Shown one piece after another: positions 4,001 to 60,729 of a stretch of DNA of 64,000 bases (its first letter is position 1; each line of letters begins with the position of its first letter). The notes beneath the pieces are model-generated. The model searched no databases, had not been told where the DNA came from, and worked only from the letters and a program-made list of their open reading frames with translations. Origin of the DNA: Bacteroidales bacterium (GTDB lineage: Bacteria > Bacteroidota > Bacteroidia > Bacteroidales > FEN-979); assembly GCA_023231065.1 (NCBI GenBank), contig JALNWE010000007.1, positions 5,842-69,841 of the forward strand. Direction: 5' to 3'. Made by a program: the position numbers and the translations under genes.

Positions 4001-5105
4001 TTTTAAAAATACTGAGGTCGCTCCGACCTGGAACACAGCCAATGTGCTTGGCGTTACAAGCGGCGGTACTAATTTTATTCCTGGCAAAGGCTATCTGGTT
4101 GCCTATTCGGCCACTGCAACCAAACAATTTTCAGGTACGCTCAATGTGGCTGATATTGCTGTTAGTAATTTATCCGTCAACGCGTCAAATTATGGATGGC
4201 ATCTTCTTGGAAATCCATTCCCTTGTGCCCTGACCTGGAATGACGGAAACTGGGCAATGACGGCTATCAATGGCACGGCAAAGATCTGGAGTGAATCAGG
4301 CGCGGCCTATACCGATATCGCCGCAAGTGGTATCATCCCGGCATTGAACGGGTTCATGGTTGAGGCCACTGCCGTCACCAATGGACTGACCATCCCATTG
4401 GCTTCCCGTACCCACGATGCTACTTCCTGGTACAAATCAAACTCCGGCCCTTATATCAAATTGGTTGCGCATGACCCGGATGGACAGACTGCCCAGGAAA
4501 GCATAATCCTCTTCACCCCGGATGCAACTACCGGTTTTGACCCTCAATATGATTCTCACTTCCTTCCCGGGTATGCTCCGGCATTTTATTCGGTTGCCGG
4601 TGAAGAGCATCTCTCTACCAATGCCCTTCCGGAAGCCGGTGGAGCCGTCCAGATACCGTTCAACTTCACTAAAAATGAAGGGAGCAACTTCACCATCGAA
4701 GCAAAAGAGATAACAGGGGTTTACGGACCTATCATGCTGAACGACCTGAAAGCAGGAACATCACAGGATCTGGGCAACAGCCCCCTATATTCCTTTATCG
4801 CTTCTGCTGAAGATACCCCGGGCCGCTTCGTGATCACCTTCAGCCATGTGGGGATTGGTGAGGCCCAAAACGAAAATCCTGTACGGATATATACAAACGG
4901 AAATTGCATCTGTGTAGCCAATGCCTGCGGGACAGCCATCACCGGTGATGTGGTTGTCTATAACCTCATGGGACAGCAACTGACGAAAACCCGGTTAGGC
5001 GGGGCCACACTGACGAGGATCGACCTGGATCCTTCCACGGGATATTACCTGGTGAAGGTGATCACGCCACAAAAAACTTATACCAATAAGGTATTCATCC
5101 GGTAA
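1044..5105 (+). CDS. Large secreted Fn3-repeat surface protein with T9SS C-terminal sorting domain
   Basis: 1353 aa. Signal peptide MKKIILLLVLSLGL. Fn3-like modules (e.g. TISGLTASTTYWFRVYEYNG, ISGLTPITQYSFTIMPY). Ser/Thr/Asn/Gly-rich beta-helix-like middle. C-terminal ~75 aa ends VVVYNLMGQQL...GYYLVKVITPQKTYTNKVFIR, typical of T9SS type A CTDs. Confidence 0.8.
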   Translation: MKKIILLLVLSLGLNYWGWGQKTASATVNSRPSYIDLSSATAEGAVLMTCAGYSQDDARYRLYNGSNQYYCWDATTSTYISSTSYSSGPRIPGTPSTSSTFWIVFQRGNNNATTASYRDRLGSGYSTNYQTVALPAATSILVSFTLSGNFIGTGNYSTDVKRVVLAYNGSSILVSAASTALTTGAFSVVCPNTETITKIEIRAIDNSLITSLTGTWNSTTNLGYFSAPTTQASNITFSGISTTGMIPSWTNGDGSKRIVIMNTSNSFTDPTDGTDPSANPVYGGSGEQVVYNNSSNTVTISGLTASTTYWFRVYEYNGSGVTTKYLVTTATGNPISQATNGSVSVPTIISPTATTISNNSATLGGNITLDGGDAITTRGTVWNTSSGVLVTDNPLAEGGAATGVFSHSRSSLPAKTLIYYKAYATNSIGTSLTDESSFYTLADEPSDHVTGFAAASGGTTSINLSWTGTATGADGYIILQKVGGTAPTGTPSDATAYIVGNTIGDGTVAAIVTNGAQTSQSISGLTPITQYSFTIMPYAWDATNAQTYNYRTSATIPSASATTDEPSATAYTWNVASGNWNTSASWTPERTTPAANDILVFDGSIQATPTVTLDFTSPQSIGRLRIINNASVTFGTSAETRTLNIGYTGASSPQLEVGSGSTLTVSAVNAITVNVLTGFTGNISGNIIYQNAAHRLTAIDASGITFNNGGVFTAGTSFTGSPFGSGTGNSVIFSSGSTYVQQAGSNPFAATTAIVTFQTGSLFRLEGNLTPSFSGRTYANFELNYNGPISASGALAVLIDNLTITQGTFNFNVSGTPGHSINGNIYVASGATLTFSPSSAGSVTLNGSATQTISGDGTLSTSGNSTLVINNTVVTNKNITFGGNLTINSSKSFTINAGKNVTVSGTLTNTENSGLVIKSGGSLKQNTGSVPATVERDITAWSDATHGWHFISSPVAEQAVDPSFTDPTPVNYDFFTWWQPTNQWVNFKNTEVAPTWNTANVLGVTSGGTNFIPGKGYLVAYSATATKQFSGTLNVADIAVSNLSVNASNYGWHLLGNPFPCALTWNDGNWAMTAINGTAKIWSESGAAYTDIAASGIIPALNGFMVEATAVTNGLTIPLASRTHDATSWYKSNSGPYIKLVAHDPDGQTAQESIILFTPDATTGFDPQYDSHFLPGYAPAFYSVAGEEHLSTNALPEAGGAVQIPFNFTKNEGSNFTIEAKEITGVYGPIMLNDLKAGTSQDLGNSPLYSFIASAEDTPGRFVITFSHVGIGEAQNENPVRIYTNGNCICVANACGTAITGDVVVYNLMGQQLTKTRLGGATLTRIDLDPSTGYYLVKVITPQKTYTNKVFIR

Positions 5106-27986: not shown

Positions 27987-29396
27987 ATGGATCCAATTCT
28001 TGAAAATAGCATAACCCTTGAAAGGATGCTTGCATTATATGAAGCAAACCGTCAGGTTTTATCCGCGGACGACACACCCATCCTTTCCGGGATCCGCGAA
28101 AACGCTTTTATATCTCTTGGTAAGCTCAGGTTCCCGGATACAAAGATGGAAGCCTGGCGGCATACTGATCTGAAGGAGAGTCTCGGACGCGGATATGATT
28201 ATTATCTTCATCCCACAAAAGAAACAGATATTCAGAAAGTTTTCCGGTGCAATATCCCCCATCTTGATACCGCGATCATCGGGCAATTGAACGGTTGGTA
28301 CGTTTCCAAAGATGTACCCCTGATGGAACTTGGCAACGGCATCATCATGGGCAGCCTTGCGGAGGCTAAAAAGAAATATCCGGCGCTGATCGAAAAATAT
28401 TATGGTCAGGCAGCCCACGATACGGAAGAGGTTTTTACCGCCCTGAATACGGCTTTTGAACAGGATGGGGTCTTTATCTATGTCCCGGCAGGTGTGAAAA
28501 GCCCCAAACCGGTACAAATGATCAATGTAATCCAGCATCCTGAAAATATTTTTCTCCAATCGCGTAATCTGATCGTTGTTGGGGACGATGCGCAACTTTC
28601 GCTGGTCCATTGTGATGATTCCTATAACCATCAGGGCAGTTTTTCGAATATCGTGACCGAAGTTTTCCTTGGAAGAAATGCTTACCTGGATCATTATAAG
28701 CTGCAAAATATCAACAACAACAGTACCCTGATCAGTTCGATATATTTTAAAATTGAATCGGCCGCCAACCTCGAATCGCATTACCTTTCGCTCAACGGAG
28801 GGTTGTTGCGCAACAACATCCGGGCCCTTTTCAACGGGCCTCATGGAAATGCCAACCTTTACGGGCTTTATCTGATGGACCGCAAACAGCATATCGACAA
28901 TCATGTGGTTGTAGATCACGCTTCTCCTGAATGCACCAGCAATGAAATTTTTAAAGGGATCCTTGACGAAAATGCACGGGGCGTTTTCAACGGTCATGTC
29001 CTGGTTCGCCGCAATGCTGCCAAAACAGATGCCCGTCAGACCAATAAGAACATCTTGTTGACTGATAATGCCAGGATCAATTCGGAACCTTTTCTCGAAA
29101 TTTATCATGATGATGTGAAATGTTCCCATGGATCCACCACTGGTCAGCTGGATACGGAGGCGATGTTTTACCTCCGACAACGGGGGATCAGTGAGGAGAG
29201 CGCACGGATGTTGCTGATGTTTGCCTTTGCCGATGAAGTAGTGGCAAAAATTGCCATCCCGCAACTCCGCCAACGGATAGAAGATATGGTCAAGAAACGG
29301 TTACAGGGTGAACTCCGGATCTGCGAACAATGTGTACTTCATTGCAGCACACCCGAAAAACCGTTGGAATTCCGGGTCGATGTGTCGAAAATTTGA
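27987..29396 (+). CDS. sufD: Fe-S cluster assembly protein SufD
   Basis: 469 aa. SufD C-terminal beta-helix motifs (LEIYHDDVKCSHGSTTGQLD, MFYLRQRGI). Position between sufC and sufS. Confidence 0.9.
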   Translation: MDPILENSITLERMLALYEANRQVLSADDTPILSGIRENAFISLGKLRFPDTKMEAWRHTDLKESLGRGYDYYLHPTKETDIQKVFRCNIPHLDTAIIGQLNGWYVSKDVPLMELGNGIIMGSLAEAKKKYPALIEKYYGQAAHDTEEVFTALNTAFEQDGVFIYVPAGVKSPKPVQMINVIQHPENIFLQSRNLIVVGDDAQLSLVHCDDSYNHQGSFSNIVTEVFLGRNAYLDHYKLQNINNNSTLISSIYFKIESAANLESHYLSLNGGLLRNNIRALFNGPHGNANLYGLYLMDRKQHIDNHVVVDHASPECTSNEIFKGILDENARGVFNGHVLVRRNAAKTDARQTNKNILLTDNARINSEPFLEIYHDDVKCSHGSTTGQLDTEAMFYLRQRGISEESARMLLMFAFADEVVAKIAIPQLRQRIEDMVKKRLQGELRICEQCVLHCSTPEKPLEFRVDVSKI

Positions 29397-29397
29397 T

Positions 29398-29474
29398 AGG
29401 AGATGGGGGATGGTCAATAGTCAATAGTCAATAGTCAATGGTCAATAGTCAATGGTCAATAGTCAATAGTCAAT
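29398..29474 (+). repeat. Heptanucleotide tandem array: 2 purine-rich units (AGGAGAT GGGGGAT) + 9 units RGTCAAT
   Basis: Direct reading: aggagat gggggat ggtcaat agtcaat agtcaat agtcaat ggtcaat agtcaat ggtcaat agtcaat agtcaat. It fills the sufD-sufS spacer. Confidence 0.95.
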
Positions 29475-46965: not shown

Positions 46966-47036
46966 GCAGAGGGATGGAGGAGATAGGCGATAAAAGATAA
47001 GAGATGGGGGATAGGAGATGAGAGATGGGGGATGAA
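46966..47036 (+). repeat. Purine-rich 7-bp periodic array (ATAGGCG ATAAAAG ATAAGAG ATGGGGG ATAGGAG ATGAGAG ATGGGGG ...)
   Basis: Direct reading. GAGATGGGGGAT occurs twice (47001-47012, 47022-47033), 21 nt apart. Confidence 0.85.
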
Positions 47037-47045
47037 ATTTAAAAT

Positions 47046-47087
47046 AGTCAATTGTCAATTGTCAATTGTCAATAGTCAATTGTAAAC
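47046..47087 (+). repeat. Heptanucleotide tandem array, 5 units WGTCAAT + 1 degenerate (TGTAAAC)
   Basis: Direct reading: agtcaat tgtcaat tgtcaat tgtcaat agtcaat tgtaaac. Ends 3 nt before the TATCTTTG box of the ABC exporter gene. Confidence 0.95.
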
Positions 47088-51162: not shown

Positions 51163-53087
51163 GAATGCCACGCGGGTCCGGATTTACGTTTTTTTCTAAG
51201 GTCAGAAAAAAGAGGCTTTCTTTTTTCCTGTTTTTCATTGTTGTCAATTGTCAGTTATCAGTTGTCAATTGCTACTCCCAGGACCGGCGTCCCGACAGGC
51301 CTTTACTCCCATTTCAACAGAATGCCTCCCAGCAGGGGAATGACGAACAATTAGCCATCCAGTTTTACCAGGACCATGAATATGACAAAGCAGCCGAAAT
51401 TTATGAACGGTTGTTTCAGCAGAAGCCGGGATCCTATTACTATCAGTATCTTCTTTTTTGCTGGGTGGAGATCAAAGAGTATAATAAAGCTGAAAAGCTC
51501 ATCAAAAAGCAACAAAAAGCAGAACCAACCGCTCTCCGGTTCATGGTTGATATGGGTTATTTGAAATACCGGGAGGGAAACGAGGAAAAATCGAAGAAAA
51601 TTTATGAGGATGCCATCAGTAAACTTACCCCGAACCAGCAACAGATCGCGGATCTGGCAAATGCATTCAGCGCCAGGGGGGAATATGAATATGCCATTAA
51701 AACTTACCTCCGCGGACGGGATCTGTTAAAAAATTCCTATCCTTTTAACGTGGAGATGGCCGGTATATATGAACGTATGGGCGATTTTACAAGTGTGATA
51801 GAGCAGTATCTCGATCTTCTGGAAATCAACAGATCCTATATGAATACGGTCCAGGATAGGCTGCAGATGCTGTTATCCAATGATATTAACAATGAAAAGA
51901 ACGACCGCTTCCGAAAAGTTCTGTTAGCCAGGGCACAACAGTATCCTGATAAAATCTGGTATGCTGAATTGCTCTGGTGGTACTCTATTCAGCAAAAAGA
52001 TTTTGACCTGGCATTTATTCAGGGCAAAGCGCTTGACAAAAGATTGCAGGAAAGTGGCGACAGGTTGGTCCAGTTAGCCGGGCTGGCCGCATCAAACGAA
52101 GAATATAAGCTGGCCATGGAATGTTATCAGTACCTGATCGCCAAGGGAACGGATTTTCCTTTTTATGATCTGAGCCGGAGGGAGTTGATCAATACCAGGT
52201 ACCTCATGGCATTATCAGCCCCTTCTCCCTCCAAACAACTCCTGACCGGCCTGGAAAAAGAAATGAAAGAGGAGATCGGGAAATCACAGGAAGATCCTGA
52301 AAGTATTTCATTGACCAGAAACCTGGCCCATCTTGAGGCTTTTTATTTAAAGAAGACGGACGAAGCTGCTGCGTTGCTTGAAAATGCCATTGAAATTCCC
52401 GGGATCACTCCCCAGCAAAGAGCCGAGTGTAAAATTGAATTAGCCGACATACTCCTTTTTACCGATGACGTATGGGAAGCCACATTACTCTATCAGCAGG
52501 TTTATAAGGAATTTAAAAATGATATCATCGGGCAGGAGGCCAAATTCAAAAACACCATGCTCTCTTTTTATATTGGTGAATTCAAATGGGCTCTTGCCCA
52601 GGCGGATATCCTGAAGGCTTCCACTTCCAGGTTCATCGCCAACGATGCCATTGCTTTATCACTATTGATTAGCGAGGACTTAGACCCCGATAGCAATACC
52701 GTTGCATTGGGGTATTATGCGCGGGCTGACCTGCTGGATTACCGGAACGAAGAGGACCTTGCCCTTAAAACCCTTGATTCAATACCCCAATTATTCACAG
52801 AACATCCAATCCTTCAACAGGTTATATTTAAGAAAGCCATGATTATGCAAAAACAGGGCCAATTTATAAAAGCCGACTCGCTTTTCGGGCAGTTGGTCAT
52901 GGTTTATCCTGACGGGATCTTGGCCGACGAAGCCCTGATGTACCGCGCTTCGCTGACTGAGAAAAAACTGAACAACAAAGAGCAGGCGATGGCTTTATAC
53001 CAGGAGCTAATGGAAAAATACCCGGGGAGCATTTTTGTACCGGATGCGCGGAAACGGTTCAGGACGTTGAGAGGGGATCGGATGTAG
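51159..53087 (+). CDS. Tetratricopeptide-repeat protein
   Basis: 642 aa. Multiple TPR-like helical repeats (e.g. YDKAAEIYERLF, YEYAIKTYLRG). The start overlaps the upstream stop (ATGA). The N-terminal hydrophobic segment is encoded by a heptad repeat. Confidence 0.75.
   Translation: MRMPRGSGFTFFSKVRKKRLSFFLFFIVVNCQLSVVNCYSQDRRPDRPLLPFQQNASQQGNDEQLAIQFYQDHEYDKAAEIYERLFQQKPGSYYYQYLLFCWVEIKEYNKAEKLIKKQQKAEPTALRFMVDMGYLKYREGNEEKSKKIYEDAISKLTPNQQQIADLANAFSARGEYEYAIKTYLRGRDLLKNSYPFNVEMAGIYERMGDFTSVIEQYLDLLEINRSYMNTVQDRLQMLLSNDINNEKNDRFRKVLLARAQQYPDKIWYAELLWWYSIQQKDFDLAFIQGKALDKRLQESGDRLVQLAGLAASNEEYKLAMECYQYLIAKGTDFPFYDLSRRELINTRYLMALSAPSPSKQLLTGLEKEMKEEIGKSQEDPESISLTRNLAHLEAFYLKKTDEAAALLENAIEIPGITPQQRAECKIELADILLFTDDVWEATLLYQQVYKEFKNDIIGQEAKFKNTMLSFYIGEFKWALAQADILKASTSRFIANDAIALSLLISEDLDPDSNTVALGYYARADLLDYRNEEDLALKTLDSIPQLFTEHPILQQVIFKKAMIMQKQGQFIKADSLFGQLVMVYPDGILADEALMYRASLTEKKLNNKEQAMALYQELMEKYPGSIFVPDARKRFRTLRGDRM
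51242..51269 (+). repeat. Heptanucleotide array, 4 units (TGTCAAT TGTCAGT TATCAGT TGTCAAT) inside the TPR gene 5-prime end
   Basis: Direct reading. Encodes VVNCQLSVVNC of the predicted N-terminal hydrophobic segment. Confidence 0.85.
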
Positions 53088-53094
53088 GGTAAGG

Positions 53095-53111
53095 GATAAG
53101 AGATGGGGGAT
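53095..53111 (+). repeat. Solo purine-rich repeat copy GATAAGAGATGGGGGAT
   Basis: 17-nt identity with 46996-47012. Lies between the TPR gene stop and the rsmA start. Confidence 0.8.
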
Positions 53112-53147
53112 CCAGCGCCTGGCATTTATTTGAAGAAAGTTGAACCC

Positions 53148-53948
53148 ATGATACGACCAAAGAAGCATTTAGGCCAGCATTTTTTACGGGATGAAAACAT
53201 CGCGCAAAAAATCGTGGGTTACCTCAATCCGGAATATCCATTGGTATTGGAAATTGGTCCGGGAATGGGATCCTTATCAAAATATCTCCTTCAGGATCCC
53301 CGGTTTGACCCTTATTTCATGGAAGTGGACAGGGAAGCTGTAAGTTATTTGATATCGACTTTTCCCGAAATTTCAGGGAAGTTGATTGAGGCTGACTTCC
53401 TGAAATACGATTTATCCTGCTTTCCATCCCCCATCTCCCATCTCCCATCTCCCATCTCTTTCATCGGCAATTTTCCCTATAACATCTCCTCCCAGATCTT
53501 ATTCAAAGCCCTGGAATATCGACACCGGGTCAGGGAGGTTATCGGAATGTTCCAGAAAGAAGTGGCCCTCCGCGTGGCATCCCCTCCGGGAAACAGAACT
53601 TATGGGATCCTCAGTGTATTATTGCAGGCTTTTTTTGAGATCGATTATCTCTTTACGGTCAATGAAAATGTATTTGACCCGCCGCCCAAAGTAAAATCGG
53701 CCGTCATTCGCTTACGCCGCAATGAGGTAATATCCCTGGGATGCGATGAGGCTTTGTTTTTCCGCGTTGTTAAAATGGCCTTTAACCAACGGAGAAAGAC
53801 CCTGCGGAATGCGCTCCGTCCGCTTCTTGATAAATCCCTGTTATCGGACGACAGCGCGCTCAAGCAGATGCTGGACCTACGCGCCGAACGTCTGAATGTA
53901 AGCGATTTTGTGGCCCTCACCCTTGCTATTAAAGCAATAAGCCCCTGA
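53148..53948 (+). CDS. rsmA: 16S rRNA (adenine1518/1519-N6)-dimethyltransferase RsmA/KsgA
   Basis: Start at ATG 53148 (MIRPKKHLGQHFL). Motifs EIGPGMGSLS, GNFPYNISSQI, FDPPPKV, AFNQRRK. Confidence 0.9.
   Translation: MIRPKKHLGQHFLRDENIAQKIVGYLNPEYPLVLEIGPGMGSLSKYLLQDPRFDPYFMEVDREAVSYLISTFPEISGKLIEADFLKYDLSCFPSPISHLPSPISFIGNFPYNISSQILFKALEYRHRVREVIGMFQKEVALRVASPPGNRTYGILSVLLQAFFEIDYLFTVNENVFDPPPKVKSAVIRLRRNEVISLGCDEALFFRVVKMAFNQRRKTLRNALRPLLDKSLLSDDSALKQMLDLRAERLNVSDFVALTLAIKAISP
53424..53458 (-). repeat. Heptanucleotide array, 5 units (minus-strand reading GAGATGG x4 + GGGATGG) inside the rsmA coding sequence
   Basis: Plus strand reads ccatccc ccatctc ccatctc ccatctc ccatctc. Translated as PSPISHLPSPIS. 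Confidence 0.95.
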
Positions 53949-53982: not shown

Positions 53983-55467
53983 ATGAAACAAGGAATTGAT
54001 CATATACGACCGGTGCGCGGCAAAATGAAAAACGTTGCCGCCAGGAAAAAAACCCCGGAAGAACAAGTCCTTCCTTACCGGCCGGAAAAAGCCAATCATA
54101 TTTTTGGCCTGTTCTTTTTCCTGTTTTCATGGGCGCTTTACGGAAATACCATCACCAGGCATACTCCCGCCGATAGCTTTCTTATTCCCGGGAAACAGAT
54201 CATGCAACCATTGGTAAATCTCATTTTTTCCATCGAACAGTATCTTTGGGGAATGAATACTATATTCTGTCATTTATTCAACGTGATGATTTACGCGTTC
54301 CTGTCGATGCTTGTATTTTTTACCCTGAAGCGGCTGCTGAAAGATTATAATATCCTTTTCCCCTTCCTGATTGCCTTGGTCTTTATGGTTCATCCTGTCC
54401 ATACAGAGGTTGTCGCTAACCTGAATTACAGGGGTGAATTACTGGCTTCTTTCTGCGGGATTTCAAGCCTGTGGTTTTTGCTGAATTATCTCGAAAGAAA
54501 AAAAAATGGTTTTTTAGTCTTTGCATCATTGATCTTTATATGCGGCTATCTTTGTAATTCGTCCGTTCTGACTTTTCTGTTGCTTTATTTTCTTGTGTTT
54601 TACTTTTTCACGGGTTTACCGGCTAAAAAGTATCTGCCGCTGATGTTGATCATCCTGGTCGCGGCTTATACAATTCATTATTTCCTGCAATTTGTTTATT
54701 TTCCTCCAACCCGGATGACAGGTTATACCGACAACCCCCTCTTCGTTGAAAAGGGGTTACAGGTAAGGTTCAATAGCGGATGGTCAACCTTATTATTCTA
54801 TCTGAGGATACTTTCTTACCCGGTTCCTTTACTTTATTATTACGGGTATAATGAAATCCCTGTCATCAACCCTTCCTTTTTCCGCGTGGTCCTGTCCATG
54901 TCATTATTTTTCATTTTTCTTACCATTGCCATATTGAAATTCAGGAAACGGGAATTTATCTCATTTTCAATTTTCTGGTTTTTCCTGGCCATTTTACCTT
55001 ATTCAAATGTATTTTTCCCTGTCTCTGGAATAGTAGGTGAAAGGTATGTTTTTACTGCATCTTTGGGTTTTTGCATGGCATTGGTCGCGTTCATTTTCTT
55101 TTTTTTTCAGGCAAATCCCCGAAGCCTTACCCTTGAAATAGATGCGCGGTTAAAAATCCTGGCCGTCATTATCCTTTTTTTGATACCCTATGCCACGCTT
55201 ACCGTCAAACGGAACCATGATTGGCGTAACCTGGATAATTTGTACTCACATGATATCCGTCATCTTGAAAAATCAGTCCAGGCAAATATTGACATCAGTA
55301 CTTATTACTTAAACCGATCAGATACAGTTAAGGGGATCCGTTACCTCGAAAAAGCGGCCGCGTTATGGCCTGACCCTGTCCGTTATATGAAATTATCTGA
55401 TCTGTTAAACCACAGGGGAGAAAAACAAAGAGCCGATTATTACAGACGGTTAGGAGAAAACAAGTAA
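53983..55467 (+). CDS. Polytopic membrane protein with C-terminal TPR (TMTC / GT39-like family)
   Basis: 494 aa, about 10 TM segments followed by a soluble TPR-like tail (YYLNRSD..KGIRYLEKAAALWPD). Start uncertain (alternative ATG at 54025). Confidence 0.55.
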   Translation: MKQGIDHIRPVRGKMKNVAARKKTPEEQVLPYRPEKANHIFGLFFFLFSWALYGNTITRHTPADSFLIPGKQIMQPLVNLIFSIEQYLWGMNTIFCHLFNVMIYAFLSMLVFFTLKRLLKDYNILFPFLIALVFMVHPVHTEVVANLNYRGELLASFCGISSLWFLLNYLERKKNGFLVFASLIFICGYLCNSSVLTFLLLYFLVFYFFTGLPAKKYLPLMLIILVAAYTIHYFLQFVYFPPTRMTGYTDNPLFVEKGLQVRFNSGWSTLLFYLRILSYPVPLLYYYGYNEIPVINPSFFRVVLSMSLFFIFLTIAILKFRKREFISFSIFWFFLAILPYSNVFFPVSGIVGERYVFTASLGFCMALVAFIFFFFQANPRSLTLEIDARLKILAVIILFLIPYATLTVKRNHDWRNLDNLYSHDIRHLEKSVQANIDISTYYLNRSDTVKGIRYLEKAAALWPDPVRYMKLSDLLNHRGEKQRADYYRRLGENK

Positions 55468-60649: not shown

Positions 60650-60677
60650 ATTTACAATTGACAAATGACAATTTACG
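60650..60677 (-). repeat. Degenerate heptanucleotide array, 4 units (minus-strand reading CGTAAAT TGTCATT TGTCAAT TGTAAAT)
   Basis: Direct reading of the rplU-rpmA intergenic spacer. Confidence 0.75.
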
Positions 60678-60701: not shown

Positions 60702-60729
60702 ATTCAAAATTCCAAATTCCTAATTTTCA
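60702..60729. repeat. AT-rich heptad array (ATTCAAA ATTCCAA ATTCCTA ATTTTCA)
   Basis: Direct reading. Spans the rplU stop codon (60720-60722). Confidence 0.7.

Follow-up and report, generated by a model that had tools for sequence, protein, structure and literature searches.

In neuO of E. coli K1 a heptanucleotide repeat within the coding region acts as a switch, with full-length translation occurring only at copy numbers divisible by 3 (PMC13001214). Among 64 genomes the tract length runs from 3 to 53 units and is most often 20, the gene is OFF in 65.6% of them, and a single culture can show neighbouring lengths (PMC13001214). Heptad arrays are also known from a different context, with arrays of the unit TAACTGA having been described in Beggiatoaceae, Cyanobacteria and five Bacteroidetes (MacGregor 2015, PMC4679880), and for this TAACTGA/LSVISYQ repeat it has been argued that the stop-codon content of the unit governs where the arrays are located (PMC4679880). 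Bacterial long simple-sequence repeats were the subject of a survey by Mrazek, Guo and Shah in 2007, as summarised in PMC4679880.

Here we describe a translated heptad array in rsmA (ksgA) of an uncultured Bacteroidales MAG (3.37 Mb in 169 contigs, 43.6% G+C), located in a window of 64,000 nucleotides, the whole stretch of DNA that was analysed. In common with the neuO tract ((AAGACTC)n, prophage CUS-3), it is a translated heptanucleotide repeat in a coding sequence for which every third copy number is in frame. The neuO tract however is long and highly polymorphic and is found in the 5' part of the coding region, where it encodes part of the N-terminus of an enzyme that modifies the surface and was acquired horizontally, whereas the rsmA array is internal to a core gene, lies by motif IV and consists of five units with no polymorphism between assemblies. 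The array shares the geometry of neuO and fails the polymorphism features of a contingency locus where these could be assessed. Working contingency switches typically have ten or more units, a rule of thumb rather than a definition, and the rsmA array has 5.0. With the cyanobacterial STRR and TAACTGA arrays the heptads of this genome share a dominant period of 7, few and dispersed families, a mostly intergenic location, lineage specificity and a location governed by stop content. They differ in their units (YYATCYC, GTCAATN, CATCCAG and others), in their host, an uncultured freshwater-type Bacteroidales lineage, and in that YYATCYC is open in six frames and is found in frame within RsmA and MutS2, with related heptads in PepA and an M1 peptidase.

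The rsmA gene and its heptad array

The array occupies positions 53424..53458 of the forward strand and is made up of one CCATCCC followed by four CCATCTC units, for which TRF gives a period of 7, 5.0 copies, 96% matches and a score of 63. It is translated as P93-S104 (PSPISHLPSPIS) of RsmA, residues being counted from the ATG at 53148, and FIGNFPYNISSQI follows directly 3', so that the next residues read F-I-G-N-F-P-Y and the array ends three residues before the GNFPY motif IV. Sequence, TRF and ORF translation bear out the earlier note in its description of an in-frame five-unit heptad array in rsmA that encodes this peptide just ahead of the GNFPY motif. The same note had pointed to a purine-rich reverse complement elsewhere, and a 21-nt three-unit probe (up to 3 mismatches allowed, 0.00 matches expected from 100 dinucleotide-preserving shuffles) indeed found two matches in the window, the rsmA array itself and a purine-strand block at 47001-47035. 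Its expectation for slippage also agrees with the computed products, in which gain or loss of one or two units gives proteins of 106-186 aa without motif IV and gain or loss of three units keeps the frame. One feature of contingency loci, a tandem repeat within the coding sequence whose unit length is not divisible by 3, is present.

Evidence for the identity of the rsmA/ksgA coding sequence (53148..53948, forward strand) comes from family models, solved structures, the ortholog alignment (A1) and structure prediction. The TIGR00755 score of 229.8 bits exceeds the curated equivalog cutoff of 171, with the match covering residues 2-258 of 266, Pfam RrnaAD matches at E 1.2e-44, and the best solved relatives in a PDB search are all KsgA. 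The motifs are intact, namely E35-I-G-P-G-M-G41 (motif I, GxGxG), N108-F-P-Y111 (motif IV) and the C-terminal F212-N-Q-R-R-K217 (FNQRRK), and these positions as well as G107 are invariant in the alignment. The AF2 model, for which a 49-sequence alignment served as input, has a mean pLDDT of 92.8 and a pTM of 0.88 and shows a confident two-domain KsgA fold, with Foldseek returning only KsgA/Dim1 among its top matches (TM 0.83-0.89). Judged from sequence and predicted structure, the product is a bona fide RsmA/KsgA, the 16S rRNA (A1518/A1519) dimethyltransferase, and the gene is present as a single copy in the source genome. The whole ORF around the array runs from 53103 to 53948 and gives a 281-aa product from the ATG at 53103, an alternative gene-caller start that lies inside an upstream heptad, GAGATGG. 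The ATG at 53148 is most likely the true start because orthologs begin at MIRPKKHLGQHFL. Directly 3' of rsmA lies a gene for a 494-aa multi-pass membrane protein (53983-55467) with no Pfam match at E <= 0.01.

The spacer of 60 nt ahead of rsmA contains degenerate purine-rich heptads (units GGTAAGG, GATAAGA, GATGGGG and a partial GAT; 53088..53112, forward strand), recognised by sequence and complementarity and beginning right past the stop codon of the upstream gene. What had been reported as a solo copy of the repeat at 53095-53111 (GATAAGAGATGGGGGAT) is present there, as part of this degenerate run of about 3-4 units.

The loop between motif III and strand beta4

DSSP applied to the AF2 model assigns residues 92-102 (53421..53453, forward strand) to a predicted coil loop between motif III (D83-F-L) and beta4, and residues 103-108 to the strand itself; beta4 (I103-N108) together with motif IV (G107-N-F-P-Y111) corresponds to 53454..53480 of the same strand in translation and model. 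The block of residues 91-100 has a mean pLDDT of 71, the lowest of the protein and its sole weak block. The array reaches beyond the loop, with the last repeat unit also coding for the first two beta4 residues, I103 and S104.

The span from motif III to GNFPY is 18-19 residues in 56 of 65 orthologs outside the genus (in the remaining nine it was mis-anchored by the search pattern) and 20-63 residues in 41 same-genus orthologs, with 24 in the source genome. Between the frame residues FPP and PKFTV the loop sequences of the same-genus orthologs are unrelated to one another. The array in the source genome substitutes for the entire variable segment plus the conserved PKFT, and the repeat-coded I103-S104 occupy the position of the F-[T/S] of the relatives. 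The earlier suggestion of a repeat captured in a variable loop is upheld by this comparison: the segment is hypervariable within the genus and is modelled as a coil of lowest confidence, the repeat family was found only in this species among the genomes searched (see below), and no relative carries the same peptide encoded by non-repetitive DNA, since PSPISHL was found in no RsmA ortholog compared.

Repeats are seen at this loop in other species. In one Bacteroidales MAG (L031, JALNZC010000089), whose RsmA is 76% identical in the alignment, the rsmA loop contains (GGATACA)x3 followed by about ten CATCCAG-type heptads (L031:2405-2508), and an array of TATCCAG x8.7 lies just upstream of the gene (L031:2026-2093). 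The two genomes are alike in having arrays both upstream of and inside rsmA and differ in the unit family. A 15-bp direct repeat is found in the loop in L015/L039, and palindromes are found in L010 and L036. The loop is thus a place where short repeats land or expand time and again.

In Rossmann-like methyltransferases motif IV lies at the C-terminal end of beta4, and by analogy the loop would be situated at the opposite end of the strand from the SAM and substrate pocket. Loop insertions are familiar from the KsgA/Dim1/Erm family, in which the length of the segment between motif III and beta4 likewise varies among solved KsgA structures: in pairwise alignments the segment is 5 residues shorter in Coxiella (3tqs) and approximately equal to that of this protein in B. 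subtilis (6ifs). Unlike these insertions, the one described here is encoded by a microsatellite, which we class as "perfect", and turns over at the species level. Conservation and predicted structure suggest that the loop is neutral and that the enzyme is probably active. In the model, the reach of the last unit into beta4 beside the catalytic motif brings the array nearer to the core than a purely neutral insertion would need.

Other length differences were noted in RsmA. A second genus-specific variable insertion falls in the C-terminal domain (alignment columns ~320-345; residues ~228-236; window ~53830-53860), with up to ~17 additional residues in some species and a short form in the source genome, and one or more relatives have a large insertion after residue 58 (alignment columns 59-95).

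Heptad families in the genome

A TRF census of arrays of at least 3 copies, with overlaps removed, counted 127 arrays of period 7 in the source genome, against 10 of period 5, 35 of period 6, 30 of period 8 and 16 of period 9, making heptamers its dominant tandem repeat. They fall into a few unit families dispersed over many loci, including GTCAATN-type, CATCCAG-type and YYATCYC-type arrays and others; the YYATCYY family alone accounts for 33 arrays over many contigs. The longest heptad arrays of the genome, with 29.7, 32.7 and 17.6 units (C116:4159-4366, C116:5717-5945 and C107:6149-6271, respectively), exceed all those in the window, and the one starting at C116:5717 lies inside a 171-codon ORF and would read as SLFT(I/L/V)H(Y/F/S) repeats. 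The 8-nt tandem repeats (ACATCATC and ACATCAGC families) form a class apart and number 30 arrays of at least 3 copies, among them C140:189-392, C43:17191-17351 and C20:19430-19465; they have a CATC core in common with several heptad families.

The heptad arrays are mostly intergenic, 37 of 127 lying in ORFs of at least 200 codons compared with 87% of random positions. Their location varies with the stop content of the unit. No array was found in such ORFs among 26 with units that have stops on both strands, 11 of 63 were found there where one strand is open, and 26 of 38 where both strands are open. This pattern follows partly from the definition of an ORF; stop-free heptads are still not kept from genes. 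The CCATCTC unit is stop-free in all six frames, and as three units of 7 nt span all three frames, an array gives one cyclic heptapeptide (P-S-P-I-S-H-L) in any of them. The unit can thus be translated into the Pro/Ser-rich PSPISHL wherever the total length of the array keeps the frame.

The relatives of the RsmA protein come from MAGs of uncultured Bacteroidales, and lake- or groundwater-type samples account for many of these. The pattern (YYATCYC)x3 has 36 matches in the source genome, with 0 for the reversed-pattern control; none was found in the 24 same-genus genomes searched, and 16 genomes from other families of the order yielded 1 between them. These counts indicate that the rsmA array belongs to a family expanded in the source species only. 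Fourteen of the 24 other genomes from the genus contain the GTCAATN family, with no more than 24 matches in any of them compared with 167 in the source genome; it is absent from the 16 genomes that belong to other families. YYATCYY arrays are clustered: 6 pairs of neighbours lie within 3 kb of each other where 0.86 would be expected (~0.0005 of simulations reach 6), a pattern consistent with local spread and with a partner array occurring just ahead of rsmA.

Genes other than rsmA also carry heptads. Two in-frame arrays of the same family lie in mutS2 of the source genome, at C33:28025-28059 and 28674-28701 (L113:490-524 and 1139-1166), the first being a perfect (CCATCTC)x4 that encodes PSPISHLPSL. 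The MutS2 protein has a MutS_V domain at 429-610 and an Smr domain at 777-852, and its relatives align to residues 26-171 and 194-852, on either side of the first array. This gap marks the first array as a species-specific insert in coding sequence. A third array lies past the end of mutS2, at C33:30091-30118. Related heptad arrays are present in an M1 peptidase gene (VPPSPISHPLSPIL), where the peptide is of the PSPISHL type, in PepA (M17), where the array forms part of the linker between the two domains, and in a 1649-aa UvrA-like protein. Of the 34 arrays that rank best (4 copies or more, 90% matches or more) five are in long ORFs, and it is only for mutS2 and rsmA that the position clearly falls within conserved coding sequence. 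The view of the earlier note that a microsatellite in a housekeeping gene is unusual holds in general; it does not hold in the source genome.

Two further elements were observed in coding sequence. A dispersed element of ~60 nt occurs in three copies (C14:38666-38770, C114 at ~4077-4104 on the minus strand, and C14:6811-6960) and consists of a hairpin core, CCCTTCTCC-TCAA-GGAGAAGGG, with CATCCAG-type heptads on its flanks; two of the copies are in frame (...PSPQGEGS followed by SIQ/HPAS...), in the 1649-aa UvrA-like protein and in the interdomain linker of PepA. Heptads of the TTGTCAA type at 51241-51271 (4.4 units) encode VVNCQLSVVNC in the hydrophobic N-terminus of a 642-aa TPR protein upstream of rsmA.

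Copy number between assemblies and explanations for the array

Contigs from other assemblies were matched through three genes, namely rpmA, that of the ABC exporter and the one that lies 3' of rsmA. The species is carried by the samples Logan SRR6484787, JGI 3300037067 and 3300035208 and ENA ERZ27247350. The rsmA array has exactly five units in all four further assemblies of the species (99.6-100% identical), the species sample being five assemblies of which several may derive from related samples. Contigs from two other JGI samples (L111 and L112) are 99.745% (10 SNPs in 3924 bp) and 99.94% identical, gapless and with five units, an ENA contig (L137) encodes the 281-aa RsmA with an identical array, and NCBI, JGI, ENA and Logan all have records of the exact 281-aa product. 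The heptad arrays at 46980-47086, 51241-51271, 60650-60677 and 60702-60725 are unchanged in length between the assemblies compared, that at 51241-51271 also in the ENA assembly, and the most divergent contig shows two homopolymer length changes with its heptad arrays unaltered. Intergenic arrays of 4-6 units lie at 47043-47083 and 60650-60677. None of the six products predicted for -3 to +3 units was found among ~15 billion proteins, a weak negative as few samples carry the species. A metagenome scan for other array lengths, with degenerate flanks and a variable gap, gave 0 hits, a result of no weight as records nearest to this genome lay outside its scope. Genome-wide, no gene was found to be split at a period-7 or period-8 array. 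Two candidates for such a split proved to be ordinary adjacent genes. A Logan contig (L127, 100% identical) starts at window position 29455, inside the sufD-sufS heptad array, which indicates that assembly is limited by the longer arrays and that, in MAGs, only a contig spanning an array gives a trustworthy length for it. Searches with the sufS and 225-aa neighbours of long arrays yielded nothing beyond L127.

The array would most dramatically be read as a contingency locus of the NeuO type, in which slipped-strand mispairing would give RsmA-ON and RsmA-OFF cells that differ in ribosome maturation and in susceptibility to kasugamycin and other aminoglycosides. In its favour, rsmA is dispensable in other bacteria. 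The architecture is also suited to it: four perfect units and one variant of length 7 lie in a gene with no second copy in the genome, a change of one or two units would truncate the protein ahead of motif IV, and a coding heptanucleotide switch has a precedent in neuO of E. coli K1 (PMC13001214). Beside the neuO tracts, however, the array is short, all five assemblies have the five units that correspond to ON, none of the gain or loss products is among the proteins searched, and heptad arrays stay constant between the strains compared while homopolymers do not. Genes split at period-7 or period-8 arrays are lacking across the genome, and the earlier proposal of a contingency switch finds no support in any of these comparisons. 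The location inside a gene is moreover a property of the repeat family rather than of rsmA, because arrays are also found in mutS2 and related heptads in pepA and the M1 peptidase gene. rsmA is also a housekeeping gene and neither a surface nor a host-interaction gene. We regard a contingency locus of this type as quite unlikely, and a NeuO-like switch that turns the sole rsmA copy ON and OFF at a low rate as very unlikely. Through such a low-rate switch, if real, some cells of the population would have unmethylated 16S rRNA, mature their ribosomes differently and tolerate kasugamycin-type aminoglycosides to a different degree. Ribosome-modification genes would thereby gain their first phase-variable member and free-living Bacteroidales their first contingency locus, and microsatellite slippage would be tied to ribosome heterogeneity.

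Selection might instead act on the peptide, with the Pro/Ser-rich segment being a favoured extension of RsmA, for example for contact with the 30S subunit or a partner protein, and the repeat DNA only the means of making it. Every same-genus ortholog has an enlarged loop at this site, framed by the conserved FPP and PKFTV, which hints that some extension is retained throughout the genus, and I103-S104 mimic the native F-[T/S] start of beta4. Neither the sequence nor the length of the loop is conserved within the genus however, PSPISHL is absent from the orthologs, the same peptide is found in the unrelated MutS2 and M1 peptidase, and the loop is where model confidence in RsmA is lowest. A selected extension is very unlikely. 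A role at the RNA level, with the internal array pairing with the spacer heptads in a stem that encloses the start codon and tunes rsmA translation or mRNA stability, is highly improbable. The inverted complementarity between 53091-53111 and 53426-53460 is considerable (17 nt at 88%, 14 nt at 93%), the predicted MFE and centroid folds both pair the two, and in L031 too both positions, ahead of rsmA and within it, are occupied by arrays of one family. This long-range stem was rejected as a candidate, its stability not exceeding that of shuffled sequences (z = -1.0, with 20 of 100 shuffles folding equally well); furthermore the long arrays of L031 are in direct rather than inverted orientation, a stem spanning 92 codons would be opened by translating ribosomes, and two arrays in proximity are expected without any function since YYATCYY arrays cluster locally. 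MAG assemblies often break or misjoin at repeats, as where L127 ends inside a heptad array, and a collapsed or chimeric repeat or a binning error might be suspected. The identical 35-nt array and flanks were however recovered in independent JGI (two samples) and ENA assemblies, and the frame of rsmA is intact with a product predicted to fold as KsgA. The agreement of independent assemblies leads us to reject an artefact, the chance of which is negligible.

In our view the array is probably a tolerated, translated passenger: a member of a species-specific heptanucleotide family that sits in a permissive surface loop of RsmA and is held in frame by selection. A copy of the genome-wide YYATCYC / RRGATRR family, which resembles the STRR type of long simple-sequence repeat, would have replaced the content of the surface loop. 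Its source may have been other arrays of the family in the vicinity, by way of slippage, template switching or gene conversion, and native sequence resembling the unit at the two junctions (TTTCCA to the left and TC(C)ATC to the right) may have assisted. Purifying selection would then hold the number of units at five, because a change of one or two units would destroy the sole copy of rsmA. The array would accordingly be something that the gene tolerates and not something that regulates it.

The practical consequence, for annotation and for screens of phase variation, is that a non-triplet repeat in a gene should not be called a switch without evidence of polymorphism. The rsmA case illustrates that the selfish spread of a microsatellite family can, at the level of a species, replace the sequence of a surface loop in a universally conserved enzyme, and the RsmA loops of two species have been filled with different heptads independently. 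It suggests that the hypervariable loops seen in alignments of this genus have one of their sources in simple-sequence repeats.
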